From Acidimicrobiales bacterium (GTDB taxonomy: Bacteria; Actinomycetota; Acidimicrobiia; Acidimicrobiales; Poriferisodalaceae), in assembly GCA_041394185.1 (NCBI GenBank), contig JAWKIQ010000004.1:322075-386074 (forward strand): DNA of 64,000 nucleotides, given 5' to 3'. Of this stretch, positions 6,392 to 23,639 are shown piece after piece; position 1 is the first letter of the stretch, and the number at the start of each line of letters is the position of its first letter. The notes below the pieces were generated by a model, which had not been told where the DNA came from, did no database searches, and worked only from the letters and a program-made list of their open reading frames with translations. A program made the translations under genes and the position numbers.

Positions 6392-6839
6392 AGTTAGGAG
6401 GCCTTCTCGCCCCTTCCGGATTCCACGTCAGCCTTCTTGGTGCCTGGGTCGTGTACATAGCCGAATGCGTCAAGCCAGACGTCGTCGGTCGATGGCAGTA
6501 AGGGCACGTGCCACCCTTTATCGACACTATTCGGTGCTTGATCTTGAGAACGCATGGCGATTCGAGCCAGCGACCGGGCTTTCGCGGTTGGATCGGTCGG
6601 ACTTGGTTCTAGTGGTTGACAGCCTGGGCGTGGTGCGGTGGATTCGCCTGGAGTGCGGAGGCCTCTTTCGGATATCGGCCTATAGGTTGTGAGCCCTCGG
6701 TCAGAGAGGGCCGGTGGGTGCATCGATGGGCCGCTGCCGGAGCGGCGCCGACATTGGCGGTGTCCTCGATCGAGGTCATGGAGTCGGCTCGGTGCCAGCC
6801 TGGGATGGCGGGCGTTCGCACCGGTTAGGTTTGGTGAGC

Positions 6840-7505
6840 ATGGGGCGGATCCGATCGACTGCAGGATGGGTGTTCGTCGCGATGCTGACGGCGGCGGTGT
6901 TGGCCGTAGGCGGTTGTGGAGACGACGACAGCGGCCAGGGCACCCAGGGTGAAGACCTCACCGAGGCGGGCCGCGGGTTCGTGGGGACGGTCGAAGGAAC
7001 CGACGCCTTCGTCGCCCTGTTGTTGGGTGGCGGCGAAGCAGTCGTATATGTCTGCGACGGGTCGCAGGACATCTCCGAGTGGTTTGCAGGTCCAGCGGAA
7101 GGGTCGGGAATCGAGCTCAGCAACGAGGTCGGTGCCTCGGTCTCGGCGACTCTGTCCGACACTGGCTACCGCGGGTCGGTGACTCTCGGCGATGGGGAGC
7201 GCCACGAGTTCGAGGCCGTGGCGGCCGAGCCGGGAGCCGGGCTTCTGCGCATCACCGGACCGGAGGCAGAAGCCGACGGTGTTGTGGCCGGATGGATCGT
7301 CGACAACGATGGTGACTACCGCGGATCGCTGCGTGTGGGCGGATTTTCGAGAACACCGCCCGCGGCGCCAGGTGGATCGGTGAGTCTCGACAACACCAGC
7401 TACCCGGTGTCGGTCTTCCTGATTCCGCCTAAGACACCGGCTACGCCTCCGGGCGTTCCGATCCCTTATCCGAACATCGGGATGGCCGCTACCGCCACGC
7501 GCTAA
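6840..7505 (+). CDS. lipoprotein of unknown function with PAAR-like (DUF4150-type) C-terminal motif
   Basis: MGRIRSTAGWVFVAMLTAAVLAVGGCGDDD is a signal peptide plus lipobox. The C-terminus reads FLIPPKTPATPPGVPIPYPNIG. Confidence 0.65.
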   Translation: MGRIRSTAGWVFVAMLTAAVLAVGGCGDDDSGQGTQGEDLTEAGRGFVGTVEGTDAFVALLLGGGEAVVYVCDGSQDISEWFAGPAEGSGIELSNEVGASVSATLSDTGYRGSVTLGDGERHEFEAVAAEPGAGLLRITGPEAEADGVVAGWIVDNDGDYRGSLRVGGFSRTPPAAPGGSVSLDNTSYPVSVFLIPPKTPATPPGVPIPYPNIGMAATATR

Positions 7506-7542: not shown

Positions 7543-10500
7543 CTACACCGGATCGGCCAGCGCCACCACGACCTGACGATTGCCGGTGTACGGATCTCGG
7601 CTGTGTGCCATGGCGATGTTGTCGACGAACAACAGATCGTTGGTGCGCAACGGTTCGCTGATCGCACACTTGTCATAGGCGGCGTTGATCGTTTCGACGA
7701 CGTCGGGCCCGATCGGGTCGCCGTTGCCGAACCGGGTGGTGAACGGCAGCCCGTCCTCACCGTAGGTGTCGATCAAGAACTGGCGCACCTCGGGTTTCAT
7801 GGTCCACTCGTTCAGGAACGCAATCTGGTTGAACCAGCTGCGTTCTCCGGTGACGGGGTGCTTGATCACTGCGTCGCGGCGTTGCCTTGTGATCAAGCTG
7901 CCGTCGGGTCGCCATTCGTGGTCGATGCCGTTGTCGCGGCAATAGCGCATGATCGCTGCCCGATCGTCGGTTCCGAACGCCTCGCCGACGGACAGGCCGA
8001 TGTCTTCGCTGTAGCAACGGCACAGCATCCAGCCATGGCGTTCGAAGCGCTCGACCAGGTCGCCAGGAAGGTGGCCGAGCACCTCCGATGACCTTGCCAG
8101 CGAAATCGCGCCACCGCTCTCGCCGGCCTGCAAGCACCCGAAGATGATCTTCGATGGGAACCGGTGTACGTAGCTGAGCTCGTGGTGCATACACATCTGC
8201 TGGTTGGCCGGCCACTGCGATGAGGAGTAGATCCGTGGCGAATGCTCGATGCGTTCGGCGAAGGCCTCTGTGTCTCGGGCCAGTTCGTCTGCGATGCATC
8301 GAGCTGCCGCTGCGAACAGGTCTGGTCCGTTGATGGTCAACCCCCTGACCAGCACGGCACCATGTTCGGTAATAGCCGATCGGAGCGCGGCCTGATGGGC
8401 CGCAACCCATCGGTCGGCGGGTTGCTTGTCATCGACGACGACTAGCGGGGGTCGACCTTCGCCGAGCGACACCTCGAAGGGCTCGGCTTCGGCTCCTTCG
8501 GCGCCAACCCGAGCCGCGGACGTATGGCCCGATTCGGGTTCGCTCGCTTCGGCTGCGACGTCCTCGCCGAGCATCACCTGGCGAACGACTCCAGCTGCGA
8601 GCGACGGTTCGGTGCGGATGAAGAAGTGGCCGCCGCGTTCGAGTTGTATCAACCGGACTGTTTCGGCAAAGCGCTCCCACTCGCCGAGACGCGACGACGC
8701 ATCGGCCGTCGCATCGTCGCCGGCGGCTGAGACGACGATGAGCGGTGTCGCCATCGGTTCGGCGGCCGAACTCTCGAGCTCGTTGATGAAGAAGCGACTG
8801 GCGTTGGAAACGTCGTGTCGATACGCAGCGCCGAGCTGTCCCAGCTGACCTGCGTCGAGGTGCTCGATTTCGGCGTAGCCCGTGGCTTCGAGAAGAGACG
8901 TCGCCATCTTGCGGTCACTCATGGCCGACAGGTCGTCCAGGAACGACCGCCGGAGGGCGACGTCGCCGGGCATCTGGGCGGCGACGAACACAGCCGCCAG
9001 TTCGACACCTTTGTTGCCCAGTCGTCGGGCTACCTCCAAGGCCAACGCAGTTCCAGCCGAGTGCCCCCAAAGCGCCACCGGGCGTTCGCTCAGGGCCGCG
9101 ACCTCGGCAGCGACCCTGTCGGCCACCTCGCCAAGTGGCACGAAATCGTCGTCGTTCTCGCCCATGTCGTGGCCGGGCAACTCGACGGCATGTACCGCCA
9201 ACCCTGATCCGCTCAGTGCTTGTGCGAGCGCCCGAAAGTTGATGGCATTCCCACCCGCGTACGGCATGCACACGAGAACACCGTTGCGTCCGTCGTCGCT
9301 GTCGGACAGTCGCTGCAACAAGCTGTCCGACGTGGCCTCGTCGCCGTCGAGTACGCAAGCCAGGTCGGCCAGCACGGGTGTGCCTGTGACGTCCTTCAGC
9401 GTCACGGCACCGTCGAGAGCCACGACCAGCTCGACCGCCGACAGCGAGCTGCCTCCGCGATCGAAGAAGTTGTCTCGCCGTCCGATCTCGTCGACGGGAA
9501 CTGCGAGAATGCCCGACCATATGTCGGCCAGTCGCCGTTCGGTGTCGGTGCTGAGCGGCTCGTAGTCGTCGACGGGACTGTCGAGCTCGGCCGCCAGCGC
9601 TCTCAGCGCCTTCTTGTTGATCTTGCCGTTGTCGGTCAGCGGCAACGATTCCATCCAGTGGAACACGGTCGGCACCATGTACTCGGGCAACGAACGACCG
9701 AGGTGGTCTTGCAGATCGGCCGCAGAACAGTGGGCGCCCGAGTGGAAGGCGACGAGATGCTGCTCGCCATCTGATTTGTCGGTGACGACGACGGCCGCCT
9801 GTCGCACGCCATCGCGGGTCAGCAGGGTGTTCTCGATCTCGCCGATCTCGATTCGAAAACCGCGGATCTTCACCTGAGCGTCGCGGCGCCCGAGGTACTC
9901 GAGCTTCCCGTCGGGACGCCACCTGCCGAAGTCACCACTCCGATACAAGCGTTCACCCGGGCGGATGGGGTCGGCGAGGTATGCCTGGGCGGTGCGGTCT
10001 GGATCGTTGATGTAGCCCCGACCCACGCAGATACCCGAGAACACGATCTCGCCAGGTGCGCCAAGTGGAACGGGGGCGAGGAACTCGTCGACTACATAGA
10101 CGTACACATTGTTGACCGACGGCCCAAGTGGCACGGTGCCGTAGGGCGCTTCGGTCATCACCTCGTGGTTGGTGTCGTCTGAAGTCTCCGTCAGACCGTA
10201 CGCGTTGGCGAGCTTGATGCCGTCGAGCGACCGGAAGAACCGATGCGCCAGCTCGAGGCTGAGAGCCTCGCCGGTGACCGATACACAGTGCAGGTCGGAC
10301 AGTTCGACCGGGTGTTGTTCGAGGTATGTCAGCAGCACTTCGAGGTACGAAGGCACCACCTGCATAACGCCGACCTTCGCTTCGACGATGAGCTCGGCGA
10401 ACCGGTCGGGCTGCATGATGGTGTCCTGGTCGACGATGAGCGTCGAGCCACCAACCAGCAGCGACGACACGAGCTGCCACAGCGAGATGTCGAAGCACTG

Positions 10501-11172
10501 GGGCGCGATCTGGGCGACAATCTCACCCTCGCCGATGCCGAAGTCGTCGATCTTGGCGTAGAGGTGGTTGATCATTCCGGCGTGCTCGCACATTGCGCCC
10601 TTGGGTTCGCCCGTCGAACCCGAGGTGAAGTAGATGTAGGCCAGCTGATGCAGCCCGACAGCGATGTTCGGGTTCGTTACCGCCGCCGAACTCGCGAGCA
10701 TGTCTTCGACATACAGCTGCCTGGAGGGTGGCAGCGAGCTCAGCGCCTCGGTCAACGTTTCGGTGCTGCCCCGCTCGGTCACGATCAAGGTGCAGCCCGC
10801 CCGGGCCAGGGTTCGCTCGATGCGGCCTGGAGGGAAGTGCGGTTCGATGGGCAGATACACCCCACCCGCCTTGAAGACGCCCAGCACCGACGCCATCCAC
10901 CCGAGGTTTCGTTCGGTGACGACGGCTACCACCGTTTCGGTTGTGACACCGTTCTCGATCAGAGAATGGGCGATACGGTTCGCGTTCTCGTTCAGCTGGG
11001 CGTACGTCCACGCGTCGCCTCGACAGCGCGCTGCGATCGCGTCGGGATGACGTTCGGCTCGCTCTTCGAAAAGCTCATGCATGCGCTTGTCCGGCAGCTC
11101 GCGTTCAGGCCCGCTGAGCCCTTCGATCTGGAACTCGAGTTCGTCGGCTCCGACGACGCTGTGGCGAGCCAC
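7543..11172 (-). CDS. NRPS-like protein: adenylation - PCP - thioesterase - TauD/TfdA-type Fe(II)/2OG dioxygenase
   Basis: A-domain motifs: YFTSGSTGEPKGA, QCFDIS, YGLTET, GEIVFSG..GRGY, YRSGDFGRW, KIRGFRIE. PCP: FFDRGGSSLSAV. TE: WGHSAG. The C-terminal about 300 aa carry MHHE (HxE) and a distal AHSR. The GTG start at 11172 overlaps the upstream TAG (TAGTG). Confidence 0.85.
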   Translation of the reverse strand: MARHSVVGADELEFQIEGLSGPERELPDKRMHELFEERAERHPDAIAARCRGDAWTYAQLNENANRIAHSLIENGVTTETVVAVVTERNLGWMASVLGVFKAGGVYLPIEPHFPPGRIERTLARAGCTLIVTERGSTETLTEALSSLPPSRQLYVEDMLASSAAVTNPNIAVGLHQLAYIYFTSGSTGEPKGAMCEHAGMINHLYAKIDDFGIGEGEIVAQIAPQCFDISLWQLVSSLLVGGSTLIVDQDTIMQPDRFAELIVEAKVGVMQVVPSYLEVLLTYLEQHPVELSDLHCVSVTGEALSLELAHRFFRSLDGIKLANAYGLTETSDDTNHEVMTEAPYGTVPLGPSVNNVYVYVVDEFLAPVPLGAPGEIVFSGICVGRGYINDPDRTAQAYLADPIRPGERLYRSGDFGRWRPDGKLEYLGRRDAQVKIRGFRIEIGEIENTLLTRDGVRQAAVVVTDKSDGEQHLVAFHSGAHCSAADLQDHLGRSLPEYMVPTVFHWMESLPLTDNGKINKKALRALAAELDSPVDDYEPLSTDTERRLADIWSGILAVPVDEIGRRDNFFDRGGSSLSAVELVVALDGAVTLKDVTGTPVLADLACVLDGDEATSDSLLQRLSDSDDGRNGVLVCMPYAGGNAINFRALAQALSGSGLAVHAVELPGHDMGENDDDFVPLGEVADRVAAEVAALSERPVALWGHSAGTALALEVARRLGNKGVELAAVFVAAQMPGDVALRRSFLDDLSAMSDRKMATSLLEATGYAEIEHLDAGQLGQLGAAYRHDVSNASRFFINELESSAAEPMATPLIVVSAAGDDATADASSRLGEWERFAETVRLIQLERGGHFFIRTEPSLAAGVVRQVMLGEDVAAEASEPESGHTSAARVGAEGAEAEPFEVSLGEGRPPLVVVDDKQPADRWVAAHQAALRSAITEHGAVLVRGLTINGPDLFAAAARCIADELARDTEAFAERIEHSPRIYSSSQWPANQQMCMHHELSYVHRFPSKIIFGCLQAGESGGAISLARSSEVLGHLPGDLVERFERHGWMLCRCYSEDIGLSVGEAFGTDDRAAIMRYCRDNGIDHEWRPDGSLITRQRRDAVIKHPVTGERSWFNQIAFLNEWTMKPEVRQFLIDTYGEDGLPFTTRFGNGDPIGPDVVETINAAYDKCAISEPLRTNDLLFVDNIAMAHSRDPYTGNRQVVVALADPV

Positions 11173-12125
11173 TATTGCCCCGGGTCGTCGCACAGCAGAC
11201 GTAGCGCCCGAACGTGGTACCCGGCGATTCGCGTCGCGTATTCGGCGCTGAAGTGGCTGGTGTGATGCCGCACCCTCAGGTGTGAGCCGGCGATGCCCCC
11301 GTACACGCCGACACCCAGCCACACGGCGTCTGGGAGCGAGCCGGTGTTGTCCAGCGACCCCACCACCGTCTCGAACAATGGCGTTTCGAGGTTCAGGTCG
11401 GATCGCAGCGCGCCCAGGTCGAACCCGGCGTGCCTGGTCGCGTCCGCGGCGACCGAAGCCGCATCGCCAACCAGCTCACCGAAGGTCTTGTCGCCACCGA
11501 TGCTGAGGTGGCACGGGAGCGCGACTTGGACCTCGTCGTCGGGAATCAGGCCCATGACGACGTCGCGTTCTCCGGTGAGCGACGCCACAACGTGCGTGTG
11601 CGCCGCCAACAGGACCGCTGTGACCGAGGTGTTGAATCGCTCCGACAGGTCGCGGACCCGAGCCATCAATTCTGTGTCGATGCCGACACTCGTGTCGGCG
11701 ACGCGATCGGTGAGGTCGATCGTCCAACGCGGTAGCGGTGTGAAACCGCCAGACATCAAGACGTCGTGCCAATAGCGCCTGCTGTCCAGTGTCTCAATCG
11801 GTGCGTTGGTGGTTGTTGTTGCATCTGTCGTGGTCGACACGAGTTCCGCCCCCTGGTCTATATGTATGAGTGCTTCGAGCTCGCGGCTGGGGTTCTCGCC
11901 CCAGTGGCTGCCCGGCACGACGTCGCTTCCCTTCATCAGGAACGAGGCCGCATCGAGCGTCGCTCCGTCTCCCATCGTCACGCCGTAGTGCACGAGGCTC
12001 CCGACCCCGAGCGTGACTCCCGATCCGATGACGATGTCGTCGGACTTGAACGAGCCGTCTTCTTGCGAGTGCGGCTGGATGAGAGAACCTGCGTTGAATA
12101 CGCAGTCATCGCCGATGGTGACCAT
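11172..12125 (-). CDS. hexapeptide-repeat (LbH) segment continuing the upstream Pls/PosA-type domain, fused to a C-terminal half of a condensation domain
   Basis: MVTIGDDCVFNAGSLIQPHSQEDGSFKSDDIVIGSGVTLGVGSLVHYGVTMGDGA is LbH. Then YWHDVL..PLP, LLAAH..LTGERDVVMG and PLFETVV resemble condensation motifs C4-C7. No HHxxxDG motif is present. Confidence 0.7.
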   Translation of the reverse strand: MVTIGDDCVFNAGSLIQPHSQEDGSFKSDDIVIGSGVTLGVGSLVHYGVTMGDGATLDAASFLMKGSDVVPGSHWGENPSRELEALIHIDQGAELVSTTTDATTTTNAPIETLDSRRYWHDVLMSGGFTPLPRWTIDLTDRVADTSVGIDTELMARVRDLSERFNTSVTAVLLAAHTHVVASLTGERDVVMGLIPDDEVQVALPCHLSIGGDKTFGELVGDAASVAADATRHAGFDLGALRSDLNLETPLFETVVGSLDNTGSLPDAVWLGVGVYGGIAGSHLRVRHHTSHFSAEYATRIAGYHVRALRLLCDDPGQ

Positions 12126-12131
12126 GGTCTT

Positions 12132-14375
12132 TTAGATGAGTGCGCAGCCGTCGTCGAACAGGCGCTTGCCAACCCGAACCCCGTAAAGCCGCCACATGAC
12201 GCTCTTGAACGGCGTGCCGTTGAACACCGCCGGCTGCGAGCTGAGCTTCCAGAACCGTTCGATGCGCCACGACCTCCGGTCGTAAATCGAGCAGTGCATC
12301 GGTTCGAGGTCGCGGAACCCGATGCTGGCGCGTTCGGCAACCGCCAGATAGACCGGAGCGACGATGGCTGTAGCGATGGCCGTCGCGAACAAGCCCAACG
12401 GGCCGAGCGCATCGAAAGCGTCTATGGCGCCTACAGCGACTGCAACAACCGTGGTGGTCAACAGATACCGATGCGACAGGCCCAAGATCATCGAAGCGAT
12501 GTTGCTTCGGTTCTTCGCCCTCAGCAGGCGCGGGAACTGCTCGCTCTCACGAAGTTCGGCGAACTCTTGATCGCGAAAAACCGATCGAGGTATCTCGAAC
12601 GCGGGCGATCCGAGGAATCCGACTCCGTCGCGTCGTTCGCCGGATGTGGGTACAACCGTCTTCGACGCCAGCAGGCAGTTGTCGCCGACGGTGCTGTGGG
12701 ACGGGTAGAAGATGTTGTTGCCGAAGAAGCTGTCGGAACCAACCCGAACCTCGTTCACCCTAAACGACGTGCTCGAGTAGTCGTTGTTGAGTGCGTAGAA
12801 GCCGTCGGCGGCCATGGTGCCTGGACCGACCGAGACGTAGTACGGGTTCTCGTGGACGACGCTGGTTCCGAAGTTCGACCCTGTCTGCTTCTCGAACGAC
12901 ACGTCGTATCCGATCAGCTTCAGGTAGTGGACGATGTAAGAGGTGTCCCCGAGCAGCCAGGTCCAGAACTTCGAGTTCGTGAAACGCTCGATTCCGCGCT
13001 GAGCCATGTAGTGAAGGCCGTAAAGGCTGTACGTGGTGTTCGGCCGGACAAACACCGACAGGACTCGTCCCGCCGCCACCGCAAGTGCGAGGCGAACGAC
13101 CATCAGGGTCACGAACACCAGCCCGGACAGGATCAGAACCGATACAAGGTCGAAGCCCGCCGAGATACCCAGGAAGCTGTCGGTCTCACTCATCGCCCAA
13201 CGCCAGTCGGCGAGCGCTCCAAACGCCACCGTCGGGAGCGGGAGGGTGACGAGCAGGTGGAACGACAGCTGCAGTAGGCCGTAGCCGAACCGTCGACGGG
13301 TGGACGCGAGGCCCGCTTCGACGGCCATGTAGTCGACGTCGCTATCGGTCGTGGCGGGCACGCCGACCCGTCGCTGGCCCGCAGGGATCGACTGGCCGAC
13401 CCCCAGCGAAGACGAATGGCCGAGTTGGGCGCCGTCGCCGACCTCGCTGTCGATCTCGAGGACGGTGGCTTCACCGACGAACGCGTTGTCGCCGATGCGC
13501 ACCGTTCCGGTCTGGATGACCGAGCCGGTTGCCCTGTAGCCACTGAACACTGCCGAGCGCCGGATCACCGCGCCAGATCCGATAGAGATGAGGTCGGTGC
13601 AGACAGGCATTCCACGAGAGAAGATCACGGCGCCTTCGCCTATGCGGGCGCCGAGCAACCGCAGGTACACCGGGAAGACGGGTGTGCCGGCGAACAACAC
13701 GACCGGATTTGCCCGAAGCGCTGTCTTGACGAGCCAGAAGCGGAAGTATCGGAGACTCCAGATGGGAATGGTCTCCACCTTGAAACGACCGACAAGGGTC
13801 CACTTGAGTGCAACTGGGAACAGGGCCAGGCCTACGAAGTGTCCGCTGCCCACGATGATCGCCCGCAGGTATGTCTGGACCGCTCCAGAACCGTTCGCCA
13901 CCCACTCGTATCCAAACGACAGGGTGAGCGACAGTGCCAGGGCGGTGACGATGAACGTTGCGAGCTGCAGTGCTCCGCACAGCCAATACGAGGCCGTCGA
14001 TGCTGGGGCCGCCGAGGAGTGCAGGGTCGTGCGCGGTCCGTCGGTATCGCGTTGTCCCGCTCGATTGTCGGAATGGGACGTCTGTGCGATCGCTATCTGG
14101 TGCTCGAGGTGATCGGCCAGCCGTGCCGCCGTGGGGTTCTGGTAGACGTCCTTTATTGCCACAGGCGGCAGGCCCGGAACGCTGCGCAGGCGAGCGCAGA
14201 GTTGGGCGATCAGCAACGAATCGGCCTCGAGCTCGTCGAAGAAGTCGGCGTCGGCGTCGATGCCGTCACGTTCGAGTACCGACTCGAGCGCGATTGTGAG
14301 CGCCAGCAGAATCGAAGACTGTTCCTTGCGGATCGCGACCTGTCCAGCTCGGGAAATGGCTCCTGCTCCACCCAT
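12132..14375 (-). CDS. carrier protein (PP-binding) fused to Pls/PosA-type membrane-embedded hexapeptide domain (TIGR02353-like), ended by an in-frame TAA
   Basis: DFFDELEADSLLIAQL is a PP-binding Ser motif. It is followed by alternating TM blocks and LbH stretches (IGEGAVIFSRG..., VSVGPGTMAADG..., VGKRLFDDGCALI*). The start is uncertain: ATG 14375 has GAGGGG upstream, and ATG 14402 is the alternative. Confidence 0.7.
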   Translation of the reverse strand: MGGAGAISRAGQVAIRKEQSSILLALTIALESVLERDGIDADADFFDELEADSLLIAQLCARLRSVPGLPPVAIKDVYQNPTAARLADHLEHQIAIAQTSHSDNRAGQRDTDGPRTTLHSSAAPASTASYWLCGALQLATFIVTALALSLTLSFGYEWVANGSGAVQTYLRAIIVGSGHFVGLALFPVALKWTLVGRFKVETIPIWSLRYFRFWLVKTALRANPVVLFAGTPVFPVYLRLLGARIGEGAVIFSRGMPVCTDLISIGSGAVIRRSAVFSGYRATGSVIQTGTVRIGDNAFVGEATVLEIDSEVGDGAQLGHSSSLGVGQSIPAGQRRVGVPATTDSDVDYMAVEAGLASTRRRFGYGLLQLSFHLLVTLPLPTVAFGALADWRWAMSETDSFLGISAGFDLVSVLILSGLVFVTLMVVRLALAVAAGRVLSVFVRPNTTYSLYGLHYMAQRGIERFTNSKFWTWLLGDTSYIVHYLKLIGYDVSFEKQTGSNFGTSVVHENPYYVSVGPGTMAADGFYALNNDYSSTSFRVNEVRVGSDSFFGNNIFYPSHSTVGDNCLLASKTVVPTSGERRDGVGFLGSPAFEIPRSVFRDQEFAELRESEQFPRLLRAKNRSNIASMILGLSHRYLLTTTVVAVAVGAIDAFDALGPLGLFATAIATAIVAPVYLAVAERASIGFRDLEPMHCSIYDRRSWRIERFWKLSSQPAVFNGTPFKSVMWRLYGVRVGKRLFDDGCALI

Positions 14376-14582
14376 TGGAAGCCCCTCAGAGTCGCGGCGC
14401 ATGCCGTTGCGCCCGCTACTTCGACTATTCGCCACCTGCCGGCGGTGTCCAGGGCCCTTGGTCCCAGTTGCAGTTTGAGTAGCGTTGTTTTTGGGCTGAT
14501 AACTCTCTTCGTGGTGATGGCATCGCTGCAAGTGTCGAATTGATAGGTGTAACCACACCGGCTCGCGACCGTCTAGAAGGAC
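14376..14582. promoter_or_regulatory. divergent intergenic/promoter region between the NRPS-like operon and the rSAM operon
   Basis: About 200 nt non-coding, locally less GC-rich (gtttgagtagcgttgtttttgggctgataactc...gaattgatagg). It is flanked by outward-facing genes. No specific -35/-10 could be assigned. Confidence 0.35.
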
Positions 14583-14804
14583 GTGGATCCCGATCTCTCA
14601 CCAGACCAGACGGCGACGGTTGCGGCACTGGTCGAACGTCTCGTGGCGTTCCACGCTGAACTGGAACCAGCAGAGCAGGCCGAGTTGGAACGTATCGTCT
14701 GGGCGTCGCTGCCCGCCCCTGACCGTTTCGCCCTGAGCGGACGGGCTGAGCCATTCTCGGAGACCGAGAGCGCGCTCGTAGACCGACTCGCAGCGGAGAT
14801 CTGA
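14583..14804 (+). CDS. small acidic helical protein (73 aa), candidate precursor/partner peptide of the adjacent rSAM enzyme
   Basis: GTG start with AAGGA upstream. The stop lies 2 nt before the rSAM start. Residues 15-39 align ungapped with the 96-aa ORF at 16015. Confidence 0.55.
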   Translation: MDPDLSPDQTATVAALVERLVAFHAELEPAEQAELERIVWASLPAPDRFALSGRAEPFSETESALVDRLAAEI

Positions 14805-14806
14805 TC

Positions 14807-16018
14807 GTGAGCGAATCGGTGACCCTCATCATGAAGGCCACGCGGTTGTGCAACCTTCGTTGTGACTACTGCTACGACTGGCGTGCCGAGAAGAACCAGA
14901 TCATGTCATTCGAGGTTCTGGCGCACACGATCGCACGGGTCCTGCGCCACCAAGAACACCGGGTCGTTGAGTTCGTCTGGCACGGGGGCGAGCCGACACT
15001 GCTCGGCATGGAGTTCTTCGAACGGGCCATGCTGTTGCAGGCCCGCTTCCGCCGCACCGGACAGATCGTCCGCAACACCATCCAGACCAACGCGACACGC
15101 GTGGACGGCGAGTGGGCGGACTTCCTCGCCCGACACGACTTCGAGGTCGGCGTCTCCATCGACGGTCCGGAGGCCATTCACGATCGGACCCGCCTCTACG
15201 CGAACGGCAAACCGTCCTGGAGTGATGTGCGAACCGGGTTGCGGACACTCGTCGATCGCGGCGTAAACGTCGGAGTCTTGATGGTCGTCGACCGCCCCGT
15301 CCTCGACCTTGGCCCTCGCAGGGTCGTCGACTTCTTCATCGCCGAAGACATCAAGGCCTACGGCCTGCTGGCCGCCAAGCCGGCGAGCCAAGTGGAGCGA
15401 ACCCCTGGCGAAGCGACGCCCCACTATGTGACGCCGCGCGAAATGAGCGAGTTCCTGATCGGTGTCGACGAATGCCTCGCGGCCCACGGCGACCCAGACA
15501 TCCAGGTCCGCGAGCTCGAAGCCTTGCGCACCAAGATTCGTGGATCGGGACGGCGCCACTGCACCTTGTCGGGATTCTGTGTCGGCAAGTACTTCGTCGT
15601 CGAGCCCGATGGCGAGGTCGCCCATTGCGATCTGTTCGTCGGCGACCCCGACTACACGCTGGGCAACGTTCTGGAGGACACCTTCTCGGACTTCCGAGCC
15701 TCATCCAACGCCACAAACCTGCGCGGCCGCAACGAGCGCGAAGTGGCTGCGATGTCGAGCTGCTCGGGTTTCGACATCTGTGCAGGCTGGTGCCCTCATG
15801 AGCGCTACAGCGCGGTACGTCACGATCCCGAGTACGACCCGTCGTGCTGCGGCCAAAAGACCCTCATCGAGCACCTGATTGCACGCGAGGAGGCCGCACC
15901 ATCTGTCACCAGAACCTCGGTGCAGATCGCGGAGCGCCGACCCGGCTCGATACCGACCCGAGATCGATTCGAAGACCTTTCCGGATCCAGCAATATCAAC
16001 GAGGAGACACGAACATGA
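14807..16018 (+). CDS. radical SAM / SPASM-domain maturase (anSME-like)
   Basis: CNLRCDYC (CX3CX2C) at residues 16-23 and HGGEPTL. C-terminal Cys-rich blocks: HCTLSGFCVGKYFVVEPDGEVAHCD, SCSGFDICAGWCPHE, PSCCGQ. Confidence 0.88.
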   Translation: MSESVTLIMKATRLCNLRCDYCYDWRAEKNQIMSFEVLAHTIARVLRHQEHRVVEFVWHGGEPTLLGMEFFERAMLLQARFRRTGQIVRNTIQTNATRVDGEWADFLARHDFEVGVSIDGPEAIHDRTRLYANGKPSWSDVRTGLRTLVDRGVNVGVLMVVDRPVLDLGPRRVVDFFIAEDIKAYGLLAAKPASQVERTPGEATPHYVTPREMSEFLIGVDECLAAHGDPDIQVRELEALRTKIRGSGRRHCTLSGFCVGKYFVVEPDGEVAHCDLFVGDPDYTLGNVLEDTFSDFRASSNATNLRGRNEREVAAMSSCSGFDICAGWCPHERYSAVRHDPEYDPSCCGQKTLIEHLIAREEAAPSVTRTSVQIAERRPGSIPTRDRFEDLSGSSNINEETRT

Positions 16019-16305
16019 GCAACGACGAAACCACGGTCGGCGAGGAGCTGGTCGGGTCGCTCGCAGCGAAGCTAGAGGAGTTCGCAGCCGGGCTCGAAGG
16101 CGAAGAGCGCGCACTTCTGCAAGAGGTGCTCGCCCGGGGCGGGTCCGCTGATGACGATGAGGTCACGGGGTTCAGCAAGATGAACTTCCGCGACATCAGC
16201 ATCAGGAGCATGGGAGACCTCATCGGTCGACCGATCAACGCCGCAACAGAAGGCTGGATGGAGATCGGCGAAGGCTGGTTCAAGAAGCCAATAATCGTGG
16301 GCTGA
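16015..16305 (+). CDS. small protein (96 aa), candidate RiPP precursor
   Basis: The ATG overlaps the rSAM TGA (ATGA). GAGGAG lies 8 nt upstream and third-position GC is high. An acidic helix (leader-like) is followed by GG-SADDDEVTGFSKMNF...EGWMEIGEGWFKKPIIVG. Confidence 0.65.
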   Translation: MSNDETTVGEELVGSLAAKLEEFAAGLEGEERALLQEVLARGGSADDDEVTGFSKMNFRDISIRSMGDLIGRPINAATEGWMEIGEGWFKKPIIVG

Positions 16306-16356
16306 CGCCTAGGTGGCTCTGGGTGTTGGGCCGAAGGGGTGGGCTAGCTTTCGCAG

Positions 16357-17379
16357 ATGAGCGTTGAAATCACCGAGCACACTCTGAAGAGCGACCGGCA
16401 CACCACCGGCTACCTGGCCGCCGGCCCTGTGGACGGGCCGCTGTTGGTCTTCGTGCACGGCTGGCCCGAGCTGTCGATCTCGTGGCGAAACCAGCTGCCG
16501 GTATTTGCCGGACTGGGATTCCGGGTGATTGCGCCGGACATGCGCGGATATGGCCGGTCGTCGACGTACGACCGGCTCGACGCGTTCTGCCAACTCGAGA
16601 TCGTCGCCGACATGCTCGAATTGCACGACCATCTCGGCGGGCCCCAGCGGAGTGCGATTTGGGTAGGCCATGACTGGGGAGGCCCGGTTATGTGGAACAT
16701 CGCCAGCCATCATCCCGATCGTTGCCGAGCGGTCGCGAGCTTGTGTGTTCCCTACGCCACGGTCGAGTGCGGCCTCGACGCTCTCGTCGAGCTGGTCGAC
16801 CGCGACGTGTATCCCGAGGATCAGTATCCGGCCGGTCAGTGGGACTACATGCTGTATTACCGCGAGAGCTTCGAACGGGCCAGCCAAGTCTTCGGCGCCA
16901 ACGCCTACAACATGGTCAGGGCTCTGTTTCGCAAGGGCGACCCGGGTGGTGTGGGAAAGCCGGCGTCGACCGCCAGCATCCGGGCTGGCGGCGGCTGGTT
17001 GGGAGGTGCCGACGAGTTCCCCGAGCTTGCGATGGACGCAGACGTCGTCACCGAAACCGACCTACGGTTCTACGCCGCCGCGCTCGACCGCAACGGCTTC
17101 TTCGGGCCAGACGCCTGGTACATGAACCACGAGGCAAACGCCGAGTACAGCCGCGAGGCCGTCAACGGCGGCCGGCTGGACATGCCGGTGCTGTTCCTCC
17201 ACGGTCGATACGACTACACGTGCCAATCCGTCGAGTCGCGGCTGGCCGAACCGATGCGCGCCCTGTGCTCGAATCTGACCGAGCACATCGTCGACAGCGG
17301 ACACTGGATGGCCCAGGAGCGCCCGGCCGACGTCAATCGCCACCTCGCCGACTGGCTCTTCCGCGTGGTCGGGGCTTAG
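16357..17379 (+). CDS. alpha/beta hydrolase, epoxide hydrolase/haloalkane dehalogenase-like
   Basis: HGWPELSISWRNQ and the GHDWGG nucleophile elbow, with a C-terminal DSGHW motif. Confidence 0.8.
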   Translation: MSVEITEHTLKSDRHTTGYLAAGPVDGPLLVFVHGWPELSISWRNQLPVFAGLGFRVIAPDMRGYGRSSTYDRLDAFCQLEIVADMLELHDHLGGPQRSAIWVGHDWGGPVMWNIASHHPDRCRAVASLCVPYATVECGLDALVELVDRDVYPEDQYPAGQWDYMLYYRESFERASQVFGANAYNMVRALFRKGDPGGVGKPASTASIRAGGGWLGGADEFPELAMDADVVTETDLRFYAAALDRNGFFGPDAWYMNHEANAEYSREAVNGGRLDMPVLFLHGRYDYTCQSVESRLAEPMRALCSNLTEHIVDSGHWMAQERPADVNRHLADWLFRVVGA

Positions 17380-17424
17380 CCGATAGCGTTGTCGGCTCGC
17401 CCGCAACCGACCGGAGGCAATTCC

Positions 17425-17940
<516 letters not shown>

Positions 17941-17969
17941 GTTCGACGCCTGCCCGGCTTGGGTGGCCC

Positions 17970-19000: not shown

Positions 19001-19063
19001 ACATACGGCGAGGTGTGTCAACATCTGGTCGTGGTGAATCATGAGCCCGGCTCAAGGAAGCCC

Positions 19064-19651
19064 ATGGGTCGTGGACAAGCGAGACGCGCTGCGATCTTGG
19101 CCGCGGCCGTCGACCAGTTCTCTCGTCGCGGCGTGGCGGGCACATCGATGGCCCACATCGCCAAGGCAGCGGGAGTGTCTCGTCCGGCGCTGTACCAGTA
19201 CTTCAGCGACAAGGACGAGATCTTCTCCTCGGCCTTTGTCGGGCTGTTCGAACAGCTGGTCGACAACGCGCTGGACGCGCTGGAGCAGCCCGGCACCACA
19301 GCAGAACGTCTCGACGGGTTTCTGCAACGCTACGAAGGCGACCTGTTCGAACGAATGTCGGCCTCACCTCACGTCGACGAGATAACCGGGGCTAAGAACG
19401 AACAACTGGCGTCTGCGACTGCCGCCGTGATCTCGAGGCTCGCGGACGGCCTCGCCGCGTACCTGGCGTCTGTTTCGACCAGCAGCGGCTCGAAGGCCCG
19501 CCGGCAGCGCGACTCGTGGCTGGAGATGTTGCGATTGGCGCCAAAGGGCCTTCGCTTCGACCAGCCGACAGTCGACGTGTTTCGACATCGACTGAGCACG
19601 TTGGCCGCCTTGGTCGCAACGGCGGTCGATGCGCAACGAGAGCGAGCATGA
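19064..19651 (+). CDS. TetR family transcriptional regulator
   Basis: ILAAAVDQFSRRGVAGTSMAHIAKAAGVSRPALYQYFSDKDEIF is a TetR HTH. Confidence 0.88.
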   Translation: MGRGQARRAAILAAAVDQFSRRGVAGTSMAHIAKAAGVSRPALYQYFSDKDEIFSSAFVGLFEQLVDNALDALEQPGTTAERLDGFLQRYEGDLFERMSASPHVDEITGAKNEQLASATAAVISRLADGLAAYLASVSTSSGSKARRQRDSWLEMLRLAPKGLRFDQPTVDVFRHRLSTLAALVATAVDAQRERA

Positions 19652-21024
19652 GCACCGTTTCTGCCAACCTCGCCTGGTATCGACGGCACCAACTCCTGGC
19701 AGGCGCCATGTTCTGGGTGCCGACGATGATGCTGTTCCTGATCGACGGGTTCGGCTTGGCCGCGGCGCTGCGACTGCAGGCCGTGTACTACGCCGCCGTG
19801 GTGGTCATGGAGGTTCCGTCAGGGTGGCTCAGCGACCGATTCGGGCGGGTGCTGACCTTGCGAGTGGTCGCCGTGGCGTGGGCGGGCGCGTACTCGATGT
19901 TCCTGCTGGGCGATCTTGCTGCAGTGGTGCTCGGACAGGTGCTGCTGGCTGCGGGCTACGCGTTCTTGTCGGGCACCGACGTTACGTTTCACCTCGAATC
20001 ACTAGAGGCCGAGGGCCGGGCCGCAGAGTTCGCCCAACGAGAGGCGTCGAGCCGCCAAGGATTGCTGTACGTCAGCGCTGTCAGTGCGCTGCTGGGCGGC
20101 GCGCTGGCCATGGCAGACCTGAGGCTGCCCTTCGTCTTGTCGCTGGTGTTCGCCATCGCCCAGCTTGTGGTGGCGATGCAGTTCGTGGAGGTTCCGGCCG
20201 AACGCGACCAGTCGCCGAGTTTTCGGGCCGACATCGCAAGATCGGCCGCTCGGCTGAAAGACCCGCTGCTGGCCTGGGTGGGGCTGTACATGATCAGCCA
20301 GGTGGTTGCGGTTCACCTGGTGGCCGAGCTGACCCCCGCCTACCTGACCGACGTATTCGGCGCGACCACCGACGCGACCGAATGGGCGGCGTTGTCGACC
20401 GGCGTCATCGCCGCGGTGGTGGCCACCGTGGCGGCGCTGTCGTTGAAGGGCCTTCCGGCCACGGTTGGCCGCCTCGGTCTGGCCGCCGTGCTGTTGTTGC
20501 TGGCAGCTGTGCCGCTGGTGGTCATGGGCGCAATGGCCGTGGTGGCCGCCGGCTGGGTGCTGCCGTTGTTGACGCTGAGGCGGGTGCAGGCTGCCGCCTC
20601 TTCTGTGCTGGTGCCCGCTGTGGTTGCTGCCCATGTCGATGCGAAGAGCCGAGCGACGCTGCTTTCGATGCTGAGCCTGGCCGGTCGTCTCAGCTACATG
20701 GCCGTGCTGTTGTTGCTGGCCGGCTCTGCGGGCGACCAACTGGGGCGGTCTCTGTGGCTGGCGACCGCCGCCATCGGGGTGTTGTGGATTGCCGTGGTGG
20801 TCGGCCAGCGGCGGGTGCGCGACTTTCCCGACGATCTCGAACACGACCACGACCACGTGCACGACGAGATGGAACACGACCACCTGCACACCCACGGCGA
20901 CGGTCATCACGATCACCACCACTATCCGCCCGTCGAAGGCCCGCATCGGCACCGGCATCACCACCCGCCGATGCGCCACAAACACCCTCACACCCGGGAC
21001 GATCACCACCTACACGACCGCTGA
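19648..21024 (+). CDS. MFS transporter with C-terminal histidine-rich tail
   Basis: The ATG overlaps the TetR stop (ATGA). The motif EVPSGWLSDRFGRV is present, and the last about 65 aa are rich in His/Asp (HDHDHVHDEMEHDHLHTHGDGHHDHHH...). Confidence 0.8.
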   Translation: MSTVSANLAWYRRHQLLAGAMFWVPTMMLFLIDGFGLAAALRLQAVYYAAVVVMEVPSGWLSDRFGRVLTLRVVAVAWAGAYSMFLLGDLAAVVLGQVLLAAGYAFLSGTDVTFHLESLEAEGRAAEFAQREASSRQGLLYVSAVSALLGGALAMADLRLPFVLSLVFAIAQLVVAMQFVEVPAERDQSPSFRADIARSAARLKDPLLAWVGLYMISQVVAVHLVAELTPAYLTDVFGATTDATEWAALSTGVIAAVVATVAALSLKGLPATVGRLGLAAVLLLLAAVPLVVMGAMAVVAAGWVLPLLTLRRVQAAASSVLVPAVVAAHVDAKSRATLLSMLSLAGRLSYMAVLLLLAGSAGDQLGRSLWLATAAIGVLWIAVVVGQRRVRDFPDDLEHDHDHVHDEMEHDHLHTHGDGHHDHHHYPPVEGPHRHRHHHPPMRHKHPHTRDDHHLHDR

Positions 21025-22413
21025 CCCTGGCGAACGCGACGGTGAAAAAGCGTCTCCGCGGGGACGTTTTCTGGCCTCTCGGGTAGCCAGGCAGTGTTCG
21101 GTCAGCACGGCTACGACAAAGCCGAAGTCGAGACGGTCGTTGGCCCACAGGCTTTGGATGGACTGTGAGGTAATGCGCCCGGGCGGGGCGACGTCGAGCA
21201 CACCCTGGACGGATCCGCCGAGCGGTTCGATTGCCAGCTCGGTGCCATCGGGCGTGGCCCACCTGACCTGTCCGCCGTCGAGCGAAACCGACCAACCCCC
21301 TTCGTGGACCAGGTGGTGATGGAAGCCGCACAAGCTGATGAGGTTGTCGAGATCGGTCGGGCCGCCGTTGGCCCAGTGAACTATGTGGTGGGTATGGAGC
21401 CAGGTGGTGGCGCCACATCCGGGAAAACGGCACGTGCCGTCGTCGCGGCGGTGCACCGCGCGGCGCAGCCGGCGATTGGGGAGCTTCGTCTGGCGGCCCT
21501 CGTCGTGGACGTGGCCGCCGGCCTCGAGCATGACCGACGAACTGATGTCGCACGCCCACCTCTTGGCGACCTCGGGTGCAACACGTTTGCCCGACAGCGT
21601 CACCTCGCCGCCGCTGCCATCAGCTTGGGTGCCTTCGCTGTCGGCGAGTTCTTGCAGCCCGTCGGTGTCGACCACCAGAGTCAGTCGACCCACGTCGCCA
21701 CGGTGGGCAGCGACCGGGTTGGCGGCCAGCACCTGCTCGGCGATACGCACCAAGGCGTCGAACCGCACGGCCCCTATGCCGCCGCGCTCGACCTGGGCCG
21801 AGTGGCGTGTTTGGTCGGTGCCGGCGATGGCATCGTCGAGCATCTGTGATGCGACCACGTCGAGCGCCGCCCAGATGGTCTCGACCAGATCCGCAGGCCC
21901 CACGGTCGTCAGCATGTCCAGGGCGTCTTCGCGTCGCGACCGCTTGACGTTGCGCCTGGCGAACGCCGAGGCCGCATCGGCGTTCTCGTCGCGGTCGAGG
22001 GCGGCCTTGACCGCTGCGACAGTGCGCTCGAGTTGGCCGCCGGTGGAGTGTTTGGCGCGGTCGACCCACTCGGCGTCGTCTTCTGGCAGTGCAACGCGGG
22101 TGATGGCCCTGACCTTCGAATACGACAGCTCGCCCGCGGCAAACGCCGCCGATATCGCCGGAAGATCGTCGAGCGCTCGGGCCGTGCGCACCTTCTCTCG
22201 TGCCGTGTGCAGGTCGTCGCCGCACTTCCAAGAAAGCCAGTGGGCGGCCGACTTGCACCCCCACGACCGCCACCCCTCGCGGCGGTCGTAGTCGGAGATC
22301 CAACGCAACAGCTGGGCCGAAGCCGCCGCGATGTGACCCGACAGCTGTGTGATGTTGTCCTCGAGACGCTCTAGTGGAATCAAGGAGTACCCCCGTTTCG
22401 ATTGTGCCGACAC
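21010..22413 (-). CDS. DUF222 / HNH endonuclease domain protein (actinobacterial 13E12-type)
   Basis: N-terminal DUF222-like helix region. The C-terminal HNH reads CRFPGCGATTWLHTHHIVHWANGGPTDLDNLISLCGFHHHLVH. The start is uncertain (GTG 22413, TTG 22419 or TTG 22383). Confidence 0.8.
   Translation of the reverse strand: MSAQSKRGYSLIPLERLEDNITQLSGHIAAASAQLLRWISDYDRREGWRSWGCKSAAHWLSWKCGDDLHTAREKVRTARALDDLPAISAAFAAGELSYSKVRAITRVALPEDDAEWVDRAKHSTGGQLERTVAAVKAALDRDENADAASAFARRNVKRSRREDALDMLTTVGPADLVETIWAALDVVASQMLDDAIAGTDQTRHSAQVERGGIGAVRFDALVRIAEQVLAANPVAAHRGDVGRLTLVVDTDGLQELADSEGTQADGSGGEVTLSGKRVAPEVAKRWACDISSSVMLEAGGHVHDEGRQTKLPNRRLRRAVHRRDDGTCRFPGCGATTWLHTHHIVHWANGGPTDLDNLISLCGFHHHLVHEGGWSVSLDGGQVRWATPDGTELAIEPLGGSVQGVLDVAPPGRITSQSIQSLWANDRLDFGFVVAVLTEHCLATREARKRPRGDAFSPSRSPGSAVV
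21041..21070. terminator. palindromic terminator-like element, copy 1 (imperfect)
   Basis: GGTGAAAAAGCGTCTCCGCGGGGACGTTTT lies 17 nt after the MFS stop. It is nearly identical to the element at 26564-26592. Confidence 0.4.
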
Positions 22414-22478
22414 AATCAACCTAGATAGGGGGTGGGACGCTCCCGATGCGAGGGCCGGGTGCTCGGTAGGCTCGCCGC

Positions 22479-23639
22479 ATGGTCCAAATCCTCGCCGCAG
22501 CGGTGGCCCCATCCGACGGTGGTGGCTCCGGCTCGTTGACTCTGCTGGTCGTATACATCGTGGTTGCGATCGGGGTGTCGTTCCTGTGCTCGATCATGGA
22601 GGCGGTGCTGCTCAGCGTTTCGCCCGCCTACGTGGGTGCTCTCGAGGCTGAGAAGCCCGCAATCGCCCAGCGTCTCCGCGAGCTCAAGAGCGACGTCGAC
22701 CGACCATTGGCCGCCATCCTCACCCTGAACACGGTCGCCCACACCATCGGCGCCGCGGGGGCCGGCGCCGAGGCCGCTGCATACTTCGGCAACGGGGCGA
22801 TCGGCGTGTTCTCGGCGCTGTTGACTTTGGGAATCCTGGTGCTCAGCGAGATCATCCCCAAGACCCTGGGCGCCGTGTACTGGCGAGGGCTCGCACCCAT
22901 GGTCGCACGCCTGCTGAAGCCTCTGATCTACCTCCTCTATCCGCTCGTGCTGATGTCGCAGTGGCTGGCCAAGGCGCTGACCCGCGGTGAAAAGGAGAGC
23001 GATGTCAGCCGTGGCGAGCTGGCGGCGCTGGCCGACATCGGCGCGGATGAGGGGGTGCTGCGAGAGGGCGAGGCTCGCCTGTTCAAGAACCTGCTGCGGT
23101 TCGAGGGCCTAAGCGTGTCGGATGTGATGACGCCCCGCACCGTTGTGGTCGCCTTCCCCCAGACCGCATCGGTCGACGAACTGGTCGACGCCAAGGGTCA
23201 GTTCTCGCGCTATCCGATCTATTCGGAGAACCGCGACGACATCACCGGCTATGTGTTGCTGGGAGACGCACTGGCGAAGGTCGCCGAAGACGCACACGAC
23301 ACCCGGCTCAGCGAGTTGCGCAGAGACCTGGTTGCCGTGCGGGCCGACACCCCCTTGCTGGAGGCGTTCGAGAACCTCATCGAAGACCACGCCCACATCG
23401 TGCTGGTGCTCGACGAATACGGAGGCACCGCCGGCATCGCGACGATGGAGGACATCATCGAGACGCTGATCGGCCTGGAGATAACCGACGAGACCGACAC
23501 CACCGAAGACATGCAGGCCCTGGCCAAGGACCGTTGGCGCGCACGCGCGTCGCGTTATGGGCTGCTGGATGACGGCGAGCGCGACGCCGCCATCCGCCTG
23601 GGGCTCACCGGCAACCGACCCGACCATTCCGACAACTGA
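22479..23639 (+). CDS. CNNM/DUF21 transmembrane domain + CBS-pair protein (hemolysin/CorB family)
   Basis: N-terminal TM region containing IPKTLG, followed by a CBS-pair-like region (VSDVMTPRTVVVAF...). Confidence 0.75.
   Translation: MVQILAAAVAPSDGGGSGSLTLLVVYIVVAIGVSFLCSIMEAVLLSVSPAYVGALEAEKPAIAQRLRELKSDVDRPLAAILTLNTVAHTIGAAGAGAEAAAYFGNGAIGVFSALLTLGILVLSEIIPKTLGAVYWRGLAPMVARLLKPLIYLLYPLVLMSQWLAKALTRGEKESDVSRGELAALADIGADEGVLREGEARLFKNLLRFEGLSVSDVMTPRTVVVAFPQTASVDELVDAKGQFSRYPIYSENRDDITGYVLLGDALAKVAEDAHDTRLSELRRDLVAVRADTPLLEAFENLIEDHAHIVLVLDEYGGTAGIATMEDIIETLIGLEITDETDTTEDMQALAKDRWRARASRYGLLDDGERDAAIRLGLTGNRPDHSDN

Follow-up and report, generated by a model that had tools for sequence, protein, structure and literature searches.

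Here we describe a compact three-gene cassette at positions 14583 to 16305 of a 64,000-nucleotide stretch of contig JAWKIQ010000004.1 (the window throughout, with positions counted from its first letter), which is likely to be a minimal cassette of the RiPP type (peptides made on the ribosome and modified after translation). The third gene (ORF3) would encode the precursor, the second a radical S-adenosylmethionine (rSAM)/SPASM maturase that is a sister of the darobactin maturase DarE, and the first (ORF1) a docking module, and the modified peptide would carry Trp cyclophanes. The cassette belongs to a widespread peptide-natural-product family for which we found neither a curated model nor a description in the searchable literature; subscription journals were outside this search and a prior description is possible. 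An initial annotation, made from the letters of the DNA, had proposed an unclassified RiPP-type operon in which one small open reading frame (ORF) is a substrate and the other leader-like, and this proposal gains support, at the level of sequence, from the precursor and partner families and from the kinship of the enzyme to DarW and DarE. The three genes, whose public records (MEZ5282635-37) derive from an Acidimicrobiales metagenome-assembled genome, are as follows:

Positions 14583 (GTG) to 14804 (TGA), plus strand: ORF1, the 'B-type' partner, 73 amino acids (MEZ5282635.1, annotated as hypothetical).
Positions 14807 (GTG) to 16018 (TGA), plus strand: the rSAM/SPASM maturase, 403 amino acids (MEZ5282636.1, annotated as 'radical SAM protein').
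Positions 16015 to 16305, plus strand: ORF3, the putative 'A-type' precursor, 96 amino acids (MEZ5282637.1, annotated as hypothetical).

The three genes are translationally coupled and form one real, self-contained operon. The maturase GTG follows the ORF1 stop at a spacing of 2 nt, the ORF3 ATG overlaps the maturase stop (ATGA, 16015-16018), and GAGGAG lies at 16001-16006, 8 nt 5' of that ATG. Together with the GTG of ORF1 at 14583 and the AAGGA in front of it, these features bear out the coupled arrangement set out in the initial annotation. The Shine-Dalgarno-like AAGGA (14577-14581) is 1 nt from the GTG, an unusually short spacing, and the counterpart of this GTG in a metagenomic relative (L001) is an ATG preceded by GGGAGGG. 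Measured against the cassette of L001 (82% DNA identity, dS about 0.55), the ratio of non-synonymous to synonymous substitution rates (dN/dS) is 0.11 for ORF1, 0.15 for the maturase, and 0.19 for ORF3; judged from these substitution patterns, all three are real genes under purifying selection. Each is present as a single copy in the window (six-frame profile scan). Homologues of both peptides and a shared gene order were found in relatives, so that, with purifying selection measured as well, the two small ORFs picked out in the initial annotation proved to be conserved together with their synteny.

By its profile matches and alignments, the maturase belongs to the clade of the anaerobic sulfatase-maturating enzymes (anSME), DarE, and DarW, and within it is likely a sister of the darobactin-type maturases (of the DarE/DarW/PasB/MicB kind) rather than a sulfatase maturase. 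Its cluster-binding regions are:

Positions 14849 to 14872, plus strand: CNLRCDYC, the CX3CX2C motif for the radical-SAM [4Fe-4S] cluster (C15, C19, C22).
Positions 15560 to 15852, plus strand: SPASM region, C252-x5-C258-x10-G-x4-C274 ... C319-x5-C325-x3-C329 ... C347-C348.

The CX3CX2C motif is kept in at least 90% of the members of a 20-sequence alignment (one of which lacks its N-terminus) and is invariant in a 50-sequence alignment. The GGEPTL motif is present, and the eight further Cys (252, 258, 274, 319, 325, 329, 347, 348) are invariant in 20 relatives, so the rSAM and C-terminal SPASM-type signatures were read correctly at the outset. With the exception of the first Cys of CX2C, the Cys of the SPASM region align with the auxiliary-cluster Cys (Aux I and Aux II) of anSMEcpe; C252, C258, C274, and C329 align to the Aux I ligands of anSME and are invariant. 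Throughout the enzyme family, the canonical CX2CX5CX3C is without its first Cys, which is replaced by Met or Arg (residues 316-348, about 15752-15850), and an invariant C347-C348 doublet stands where anSME has a single Cys. These Cys changes may reflect a re-wired ligand set of auxiliary cluster II.

Profile searches (hmmscan), a check suggested in the initial annotation, matched the enzyme to Radical_SAM (PF04055, 73.1 bits against a gathering score of 29.5) and SPASM (PF13186, 32.3 bits against 21.5), both above the Pfam cut-offs, and no NCBIfam enzyme model reached its cut-off. DarW (NF041300) was the best NCBIfam match at 309 bits (cut-off 650) and DarE (NF038005) the second at 258.7 bits (equivalog cut-off 650); further scores, with cut-offs in brackets, were 233.2 bits for anSME (TIGR03942; 349.45), 190 for DynA (450), 141.2 for AmcB (425), 132.4 for GrrM/OscB (310), 122.7 for YhhB (445), 121.9 for FxsB (370), and 69.7 for XyeB (450). 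DarW was likewise the best model for all 50 relatives tested (best E-value 3.4e-105, far below the 650 cut-off), among which the best E-value for DarE was 2.7e-93. The analogy to the darobactin W-x-K link that had been drawn from the sequence thus found a counterpart in the enzyme, for which DarW and DarE are the nearest relatives among curated models. Of the solved structures, the best match is anSMEcpe (4K36/4K37, TM score 0.80), followed by the triceptide synthase ChlB (9GM3, 9GMC).

An anSME flanked by incidental small ORFs could account for the 233-bit match to TIGR03942 and for anSMEcpe being the best solved-structure match, but we consider this reading exceedingly improbable: the score falls below the 349-bit cut-off and under those of DarW and DarE, the small ORFs co-occur with the enzyme family-wide, and the neighbourhood yielded no sulfatase. 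None appeared when nine neighbouring window genes were scanned against Pfam, PF00884 was absent among the called neighbours of L001 and of three further related loci (L009-L011), and six frames of the window and of 469 kb of related loci held no sulfatase signature in a pattern search made without a positive control. On these grounds the anSME identity was rejected, and the cognate sulfatase that the initial annotation had listed as evidence against a RiPP operon did not turn up in the neighbouring genes.

ORF3 is best read as the precursor on the evidence of its family, which has a conserved leader and a Trp-x-Lys/Arg core; one of the two small ORFs thus appears to be a substrate, as the initial annotation had suggested. 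The family matched no Pfam or NCBIfam model and no PDB sequence. Its parts in the window are:

Positions 16015 to 16152, plus strand: leader of ORF3, residues 1-46, predicted helix-turn-helix hairpin (helices 10-25 and 29-43; AlphaFold2 (AF2), hhalign).
Positions 16249 to 16305, plus strand: predicted core EGWMEIGEGWFKKPIIVG, residues 79-96, C-terminal end of ORF3.
Positions 16255 to 16263 (codons), plus strand: candidate cross-link motif W81-M-E83, from the conservation of W81.
Positions 16276 to 16284 (codons), plus strand: candidate cross-link motif W88-F-K90, from the conservation of W88.

In a 38-member precursor alignment, the positions conserved at 90% or more are L20 of the leader (invariant), W81, and W88. 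The last 45 residues hold at least two Trp in 45 of 50 non-redundant precursors, and Lys or Arg occupies the second position after Trp (W+2) for 75 of 116 Trp (65%, against a background of 13%; p about 1e-37, with counts that are not phylogenetically independent). Two aromatic-x-Lys triads had been singled out in the initial annotation: WFK (W88-F-K90) stands and is a conserved feature of the family, and FSK falls in the variable linker. AF2 places the two leader helices at a per-residue confidence (pLDDT) of about 80-87 and renders the core as a low-confidence hairpin. Cores of relatives include GW(V/M)RGGPIWPRAYGDWPR, three IWPKAYG repeats, WVEAGDPWAQW, and the C-terminal ends IWTFRW, VSWSW, and VSWGW, and repeated WPR, WPK, or WAR units are found among them. 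Precursors of L083-L085 end in IWTFRW and that of L079 in VWSFRW, so the family spans both aromatic-x-aromatic and aromatic-x-Lys/Arg motifs; these ends resemble the photorhaptin core WT(F/Y)RF (PMC9055067). Many precursors carry a motif (E/D)-V-x-G-(F/Y) after the leader helices (ORF3 residues 48-53, 16156-16173), and the nine closest relatives all keep its V50 and G52; this motif could be a recognition or cleavage site.

The segment between leader and core bears on what becomes of ORF3. One could suppose that it is modified and never released, the cross-linked 96-residue protein, or its complex with ORF1, being the end product. There is precedent for such products in protein-derived cofactors and in the cross-linked small subunit of quinohemoprotein amine dehydrogenase; moreover, the mobile unit consists of the three genes and includes neither protease nor transporter, linker residues 47-78 are conserved relative to L001 (dN 0.07), and AF2 adds helices at 47-54 and 58-70. 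Family-wide, however, the linker varies greatly in length and sequence and the leader and Trp core are kept, the repeated WPR/WPK units of relatives resemble RiPP cores, and the minimal darobactin cluster consists of darA and darE only, with cleavage by host proteases (PMC9055067). Retention of the modified protein is therefore, in our estimation, distinctly unlikely, and ORF3 continues to be best read as the precursor of a peptide.

ORF1 is, from sequence comparison, most likely an ancient copy of the precursor leader, and is best read as a leader-derived docking partner and not as a substrate. Profile-profile alignment of the two families (hhalign) matches the stretch 4-46 of ORF3 to the same residue numbers of ORF1 (96.6% probability, E=6.3e-10), and a second run of leader against partner profiles gave 4.5e-10, with reversed or column-shuffled controls at E of 0.087 or higher. 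When the whole window was scanned in six frames, the ORF1-family profile also picked up ORF3 (E=5e-8). Pairwise BLASTP did not align the two ORFs at E<=100, and the paralogy is visible through family profiles only. The gap-free alignment noted by eye in the initial annotation, with nine identities at residues 15-39 (L16, L20, F23, A25, L27, E28, E31, A33, L35), was counted correctly, and the paralogy that it implied is significant by profile. Likewise, the suggestion that the other small ORF is a leader-like partner agrees with the homology of the 43 N-terminal residues of ORF1 to the ORF3 leader, and with the position of ORF1-like domains, upstream of or in frame with the enzyme, in 55 of 65 loci. 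The family follows the pattern ..LA..L..FA..L...E...L...L..A.DP..R.......LL...E...L..L, with a C-terminal motif ..P.DR....LL/FS..E..LV..L. None of 34 ORF1-type sequences gave a consistent Pfam or NCBIfam match, so that both peptides, when checked against these models as had been recommended, fall outside any named family, and a PDB profile search with the ORF1 family returned nothing below E=0.2.

In several relatives an ORF1-like domain is fused to the enzyme, and the AF2 model of one such fusion (P0029; pLDDT 89.8) has a confident N-terminal domain of four helices without a beta strand, which speaks against the RiPP recognition element (RRE)/PqqD fold. Neither ORF1 nor the enzyme matched PqqD (PF05402). 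Alignments to the DarE and DarW profiles extend about 30 positions into the fused domain, adding 4-8 bits, and three fusion proteins taken singly score 312-322 bits against DarW, below the 650 cut-off. Alternatively, ORF1 might be a further, degenerate precursor, or might mimic the leader as a decoy or regulator and compete with ORF3 for the enzyme (e.g. for timing or self-protection). It does share the leader fold and sequence with the precursor and is encoded first in the operon, but proteins of the ORF1 type have no Trp-rich tail and carry a conserved C-terminal motif of their own, and in-frame fusion to the enzyme with confident AF2 packing fits a permanent enzyme domain better. We give the degenerate-precursor and decoy ideas little credence, and the docking-partner reading of ORF1 is carried forward here.

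A mechanism can be proposed on this basis. In ORF3, a leader folded as a helical hairpin (about residues 4-46) would be joined through a linker to a C-terminal core with two conserved Trp, and ORF1 would be a small helical docking module that arose by leader duplication, kept as a separate gene here and as an N-terminal enzyme fusion in some relatives. DarE has no RRE, and its N-terminal ~60 residues are required and predicted to bind the DarA leader (PMC10705402); the ORF1-like domain would take the position of this N-terminal lobe. ORF1 would then dock on the enzyme and present the ORF3 leader, possibly via pairing of the two homologous hairpins. Chemistry of the 5'-deoxyadenosyl radical would abstract a side-chain hydrogen two residues after each Trp (E83 and K90), and the resulting carbon radical would join the indole to give two three-residue cyclophanes, most likely through C-C bonds (-2 Da each, -4 Da in total). 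By analogy, W-M-E and W-F-K are thus the probable sites at which the enzyme forms three-residue Trp cyclophanes. Two C-C cyclophanes, at W81-E83 and W88-K90, are predicted because DarA W3K/R/N/Q variants and MicB give C-C links. In the former, Trp-Cbeta C-C links form (-2 Da) and an aromatic residue at position 3 gives an ether, the rule for DarE being controlled by the substrate, with aliphatic residue 3 leading to C-C and aromatic to ether bonds (PMC10705402). The PasB/DarE-like MicB forms C-C cyclophanes at YSK, HAS, and FTK (PMC12912966).

The same system might instead perform other chemistry, i.e. an ether (C-O-C) bond, a Trp81-Trp88 link, beta-hydroxylation, desaturation, or a WprB-like Trp-C5/Cgamma link. 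What DarE-type enzymes produce varies with the substrate and can be an ether, a C-C link, a desaturated product, or an oxo product (PMC10705402, PMC9055067), WprB acts at WPR, where it joins Trp-C5 to Arg-Cgamma (PMC11851443), and relatives in the window family have WPR repeats, and some relatives end in W-T-F-R-W or W-S-W, the aromatic-x-aromatic arrangement typical of ether-forming daropeptides. In the window, however, both W+2 residues (Glu and Lys) are aliphatic, as in the C-C products of DarE variants and MicB (PMC10705402, PMC12912966), and WprB is described as a twitch enzyme without Aux I, whereas the window enzyme is a full SPASM protein. Such alternative chemistry appears rather unlikely to us, and C-C cyclophanes at the two conserved Trp are retained as the expected modification.

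Several points weigh against the overall interpretation of ORF3, the maturase, and ORF1 as a cyclophane-forming RiPP cassette. Neither a protease nor an exporter is encoded in the cassette, and release of a peptide product is therefore not certain; the aromatic-x-aromatic motif that marks classical daropeptides is absent from the window core; AF2 models the core with low confidence; and both the type and the sites of modification are drawn from analogy. As for the partner, isolated ORF1-like domains give no match to the DarE or DarW profiles, and their equivalence to the DarE N-terminal lobe is positional and not demonstrated by sequence. Leader/partner similarity within loci is no higher than between loci (p=0.087), with no sign of co-evolving pairs.

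The family to which the cassette belongs was reached through the enzyme, since searches with the small ORFs gave few homologues: word-indexed searches returned two each for ORF1 and ORF3, and a single-family search with ORF3 over 1.84 billion representatives returned nine matches. Enzyme homologues number more than 1,500 at E<=1e-20. Proteins with 45-66% identity, carrying generic names only, occur in Streptomyces, Kitasatospora, Acidimicrobiales, Variovorax, and one Nitrososphaeraceae archaeon, and a metagenome scan added 80 more loci, with related loci spanning 38-66% identity overall. A distant alphaproteobacterial relative (L008), the sole match of a genome-contig scan, has neither an ORF1- nor an ORF3-type gene. 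Gene order was surveyed across 77 distinct related loci, drawn from both metagenomes and genomes, using hidden Markov models seeded from a few first examples. Of the 65 loci with enough upstream DNA, 55 have an ORF1-like domain that begins 120-400 bp upstream of the enzyme core, and in 15 of these 55 it lies in the same open frame as the enzyme; four such fusions are called as single proteins (P0023, P0028, P0029, and P0032; 457-476 amino acids). Where loci were flanked on both sides, 41 of 46 had an ORF of the ORF3 type with Trp in its C-terminal part, which lies upstream in 31 cases and downstream, as in the window, in 10.

The order in a 66% identical relative (L009) is ORF1-like, enzyme, ORF3-like, and then a family 4 glycosyltransferase (GT4), and in Streptomyces and one other contig ORF3-like, ORF1-like, enzyme, and then GT4. 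A GT4 stands beside the enzyme in many relatives (L009 7951-8904, L010 7176-8393, L011 7098-8354), and one clade has it joined to the enzyme C-terminus (rSAM-GT4, 808 amino acids; L046 3992-6418, L054 3743-6415), with some ORFs of this clade also reading in frame from an ORF1-like domain (890-943 amino acids). The window cassette contains no glycosyltransferase. This association suggests glycosylation of the cross-linked peptide as a further modification of the product. Several loci carry two precursor genes with different cores (L016 943-2211, L018 5278-5988, L088 5156-5756, L079 3042-3758). A second radical SAM protein lies beside the cassette in L024 (3078-4235, motif CNERCVFC), and L077 (1070-3028) has a second one of ~650 amino acids that by eye resembles a B12-binding rSAM protein; these hint at further tailoring.

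Set against characterized systems, the window cassette is closest to DarE/PasB-DarA, in which an rSAM/SPASM enzyme of the anSME-like clade without a PqqD-type RRE and a single precursor make up the minimal system (PMC9055067, PMC10705402), with Trp-centred three-residue rings that include the W-x-K ring predicted here, and with a required ~60-residue N-terminal lobe of DarE where ORF1 is fused in relatives. It differs in the score of its enzyme (259 bits against a cut-off of 650), in having the docking domain as a separate gene that is a leader paralogue, and in the hosts of its family, which include Actinobacteria and many other phyla rather than Gammaproteobacteria. A DarA-type identity of the precursor was rejected: a profile of 11 DarA sequences aligned to the precursor family with 1.2% probability (hhalign, E=0.043), equal to shuffles, so the leaders are not detectably related, and the window core is GWMEIGEGWFKK as against W-N-W-x-K/R-x-F in DarA. 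Daropeptides have been mined by a DarE-like enzyme together with an aromatic1-X2-aromatic3 C-terminal motif (review PMC10849128). This motif is absent from the window core, which has W-M-E and W-F-K only, and is found in some relatives (IWTFRW, VSWSW, VSWGW). DarW ('radical SAM/SPASM peptide maturase DarW') is the top-scoring model and is compared by score, not by substrate; no paper on DarW was found in the searchable literature.

The best precedent for the chemistry at W-F-K and W-M-E is minviopeptin, a triceptide formed by the DarE-like MicB at aromatic-x-X sites as -2 Da C-C cyclophanes (PMC12912966); compared by description, it differs in its Bacteroidota host, in its ADP-ribosyltransferase and alpha-ketoglutarate oxygenase, and in that no leader-like partner is described. 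WprABC is similar in its three parts: a precursor that bears WPR or single WxR/K motifs, the rSAM enzyme, and a ~100-residue non-RRE 'chaperone', WprC, needed for cross-linking (PMC11851443, PMC12957482). Also by description, WprB is a WgkB/StrB-like twitch enzyme without the Aux I Cys, whereas the window enzyme retains all positions of Aux I and Aux II and is anSME/DarE-like, and the window core (WME/WFK) has no WPR, whereas relatives carry WPR repeats. Triceptide-type enzymes that form cyclophanes of three residues (3-CyFE; XyeB, GrrM/OscB, FxsB, YhhB, AmcB, and ChlB) share the aromatic-x-X core logic and the SPASM fold, and their aromatic1-X2-X3 motif is present in the window core as W81-M-E and W88-F-K, but model scores are only 70-141 bits against cut-offs of 310-450 and the leader families differ. 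Lastly, anSME (TIGR03942; PDB 4K36-4K39) offers the closest solved structure and aligned auxiliary-cluster Cys, and is set apart from the window enzyme by the sub-threshold score, the lack of a sulfatase partner among the genes searched, the CC doublet, and the conserved peptide partners. From these comparisons we rate the window enzyme as a member of a distinct DarE-sister family that has a precursor family of its own, together with a leader-derived partner, split or fused.

The surroundings of the cassette were compared with those of L001, and the left end of the block common to both is given by the following segment:

Positions 14547 to 14582, plus strand: conserved upstream segment GTGTAACC...CGTC followed by AAGGA, the left boundary of the block common to L001.

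The block itself (blastn, 82% identity) joins window positions 14547-16308 to L001 2977-4692, and thus corresponds to the cassette plus 36 bp upstream. The non-coding stretch GTGTAACCaCAcCGgCTcGCgAcCGTC just 5' of ORF1 (window 14547-14575, L001 2977-3004) is kept in both genomic contexts and could be a promoter or 5' untranslated region element; no sigma-70-like site was found on the plus strand of 14547-14582, the promoter and terminator scan being uninformative in DNA of 65% GC. Flanking genes at 6836-7505, a cyclophilin gene (17375-17945), and a DUF222/HNH gene are common to the window and L001, the L001 cassette lying on the opposite side of the cyclophilin gene relative to the window. L001 lacks the entire non-ribosomal peptide synthetase (NRPS)-like block at 7543-14558. 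The three genes therefore constitute a self-contained 1.76-kb unit and the divergent NRPS is not a conserved partner, because L001 has them elsewhere in the shared backbone without that block. The initial annotation had raised the possibility of a hybrid cluster with the NRPS-like locus across a divergent promoter; this was rejected, as the L001 backbone carries the same cassette without the 7-kb block. No NRPS was found among the called genes around L009-L011, and L011 has a polyketide synthase about 2.8 kb downstream of its cassette.

The NRPS-like block consists of three genes on the minus strand, encoding a 1259-residue A-T-TE-TauD protein, a 317-residue protein in which hexapeptide repeats accompany a condensation-domain fragment, and an 808-residue PP-binding and hexapeptide-repeat protein that is membrane-bound in appearance. 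Its absence from L001 despite matching flanks points to an insertion or deletion independent of the rSAM cassette. Farther downstream, a major facilitator superfamily (MFS) transporter gene (19516-21024, plus strand), whose product has a long His-rich C-terminal tail (…HDHDHVHDEMEHDHLHTHGDGHHDHHHYPP…HRHRHHH…) and may be related to metal handling, lies beside a TetR regulator (19013-19651); in L001 an MFS gene likewise adjoins the cyclophilin gene. The DUF222 and HNH endonuclease gene (21010-22512, minus strand), which shows 70% DNA identity to the end of L001, is of the '13E12 repeat' type common in Actinobacteria.

Darobactin is an antibiotic lead, and enzymes of the darobactin type are wanted for rigid, protease-resistant macrocyclic peptides. 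The 1.76-kb cassette offers a compact entry into a large family outside Pfam and NCBIfam, comprising at least 80 loci and hundreds of homologous enzymes, with a core motif (W-x-K/R, often repeated) that is easily recognised. If the interpretation is correct, cyclophane peptides of the Trp-x-Lys/Arg kind form a large family that extends through Actinobacteria, other bacteria, and archaea and appears in no model or searchable paper. A search for the leader/partner pair would allow genome mining to find clusters even where the core peptide is unrecognisable. More tentatively, ORF1 may be a new kind of recognition element evolved from the substrate itself, i.e. a duplicated leader hairpin that lost its core and gained an enzyme-binding helix, and that acts, free or fused, through leader-leader pairing in a pseudo-dimeric bundle. 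The leader-derived partner provides a testable answer to how the RRE-less maturases of this clade find their substrates and, if true, the origin of ORF1 from a substrate would explain substrate recognition by DarE-type enzymes that lack an RRE.

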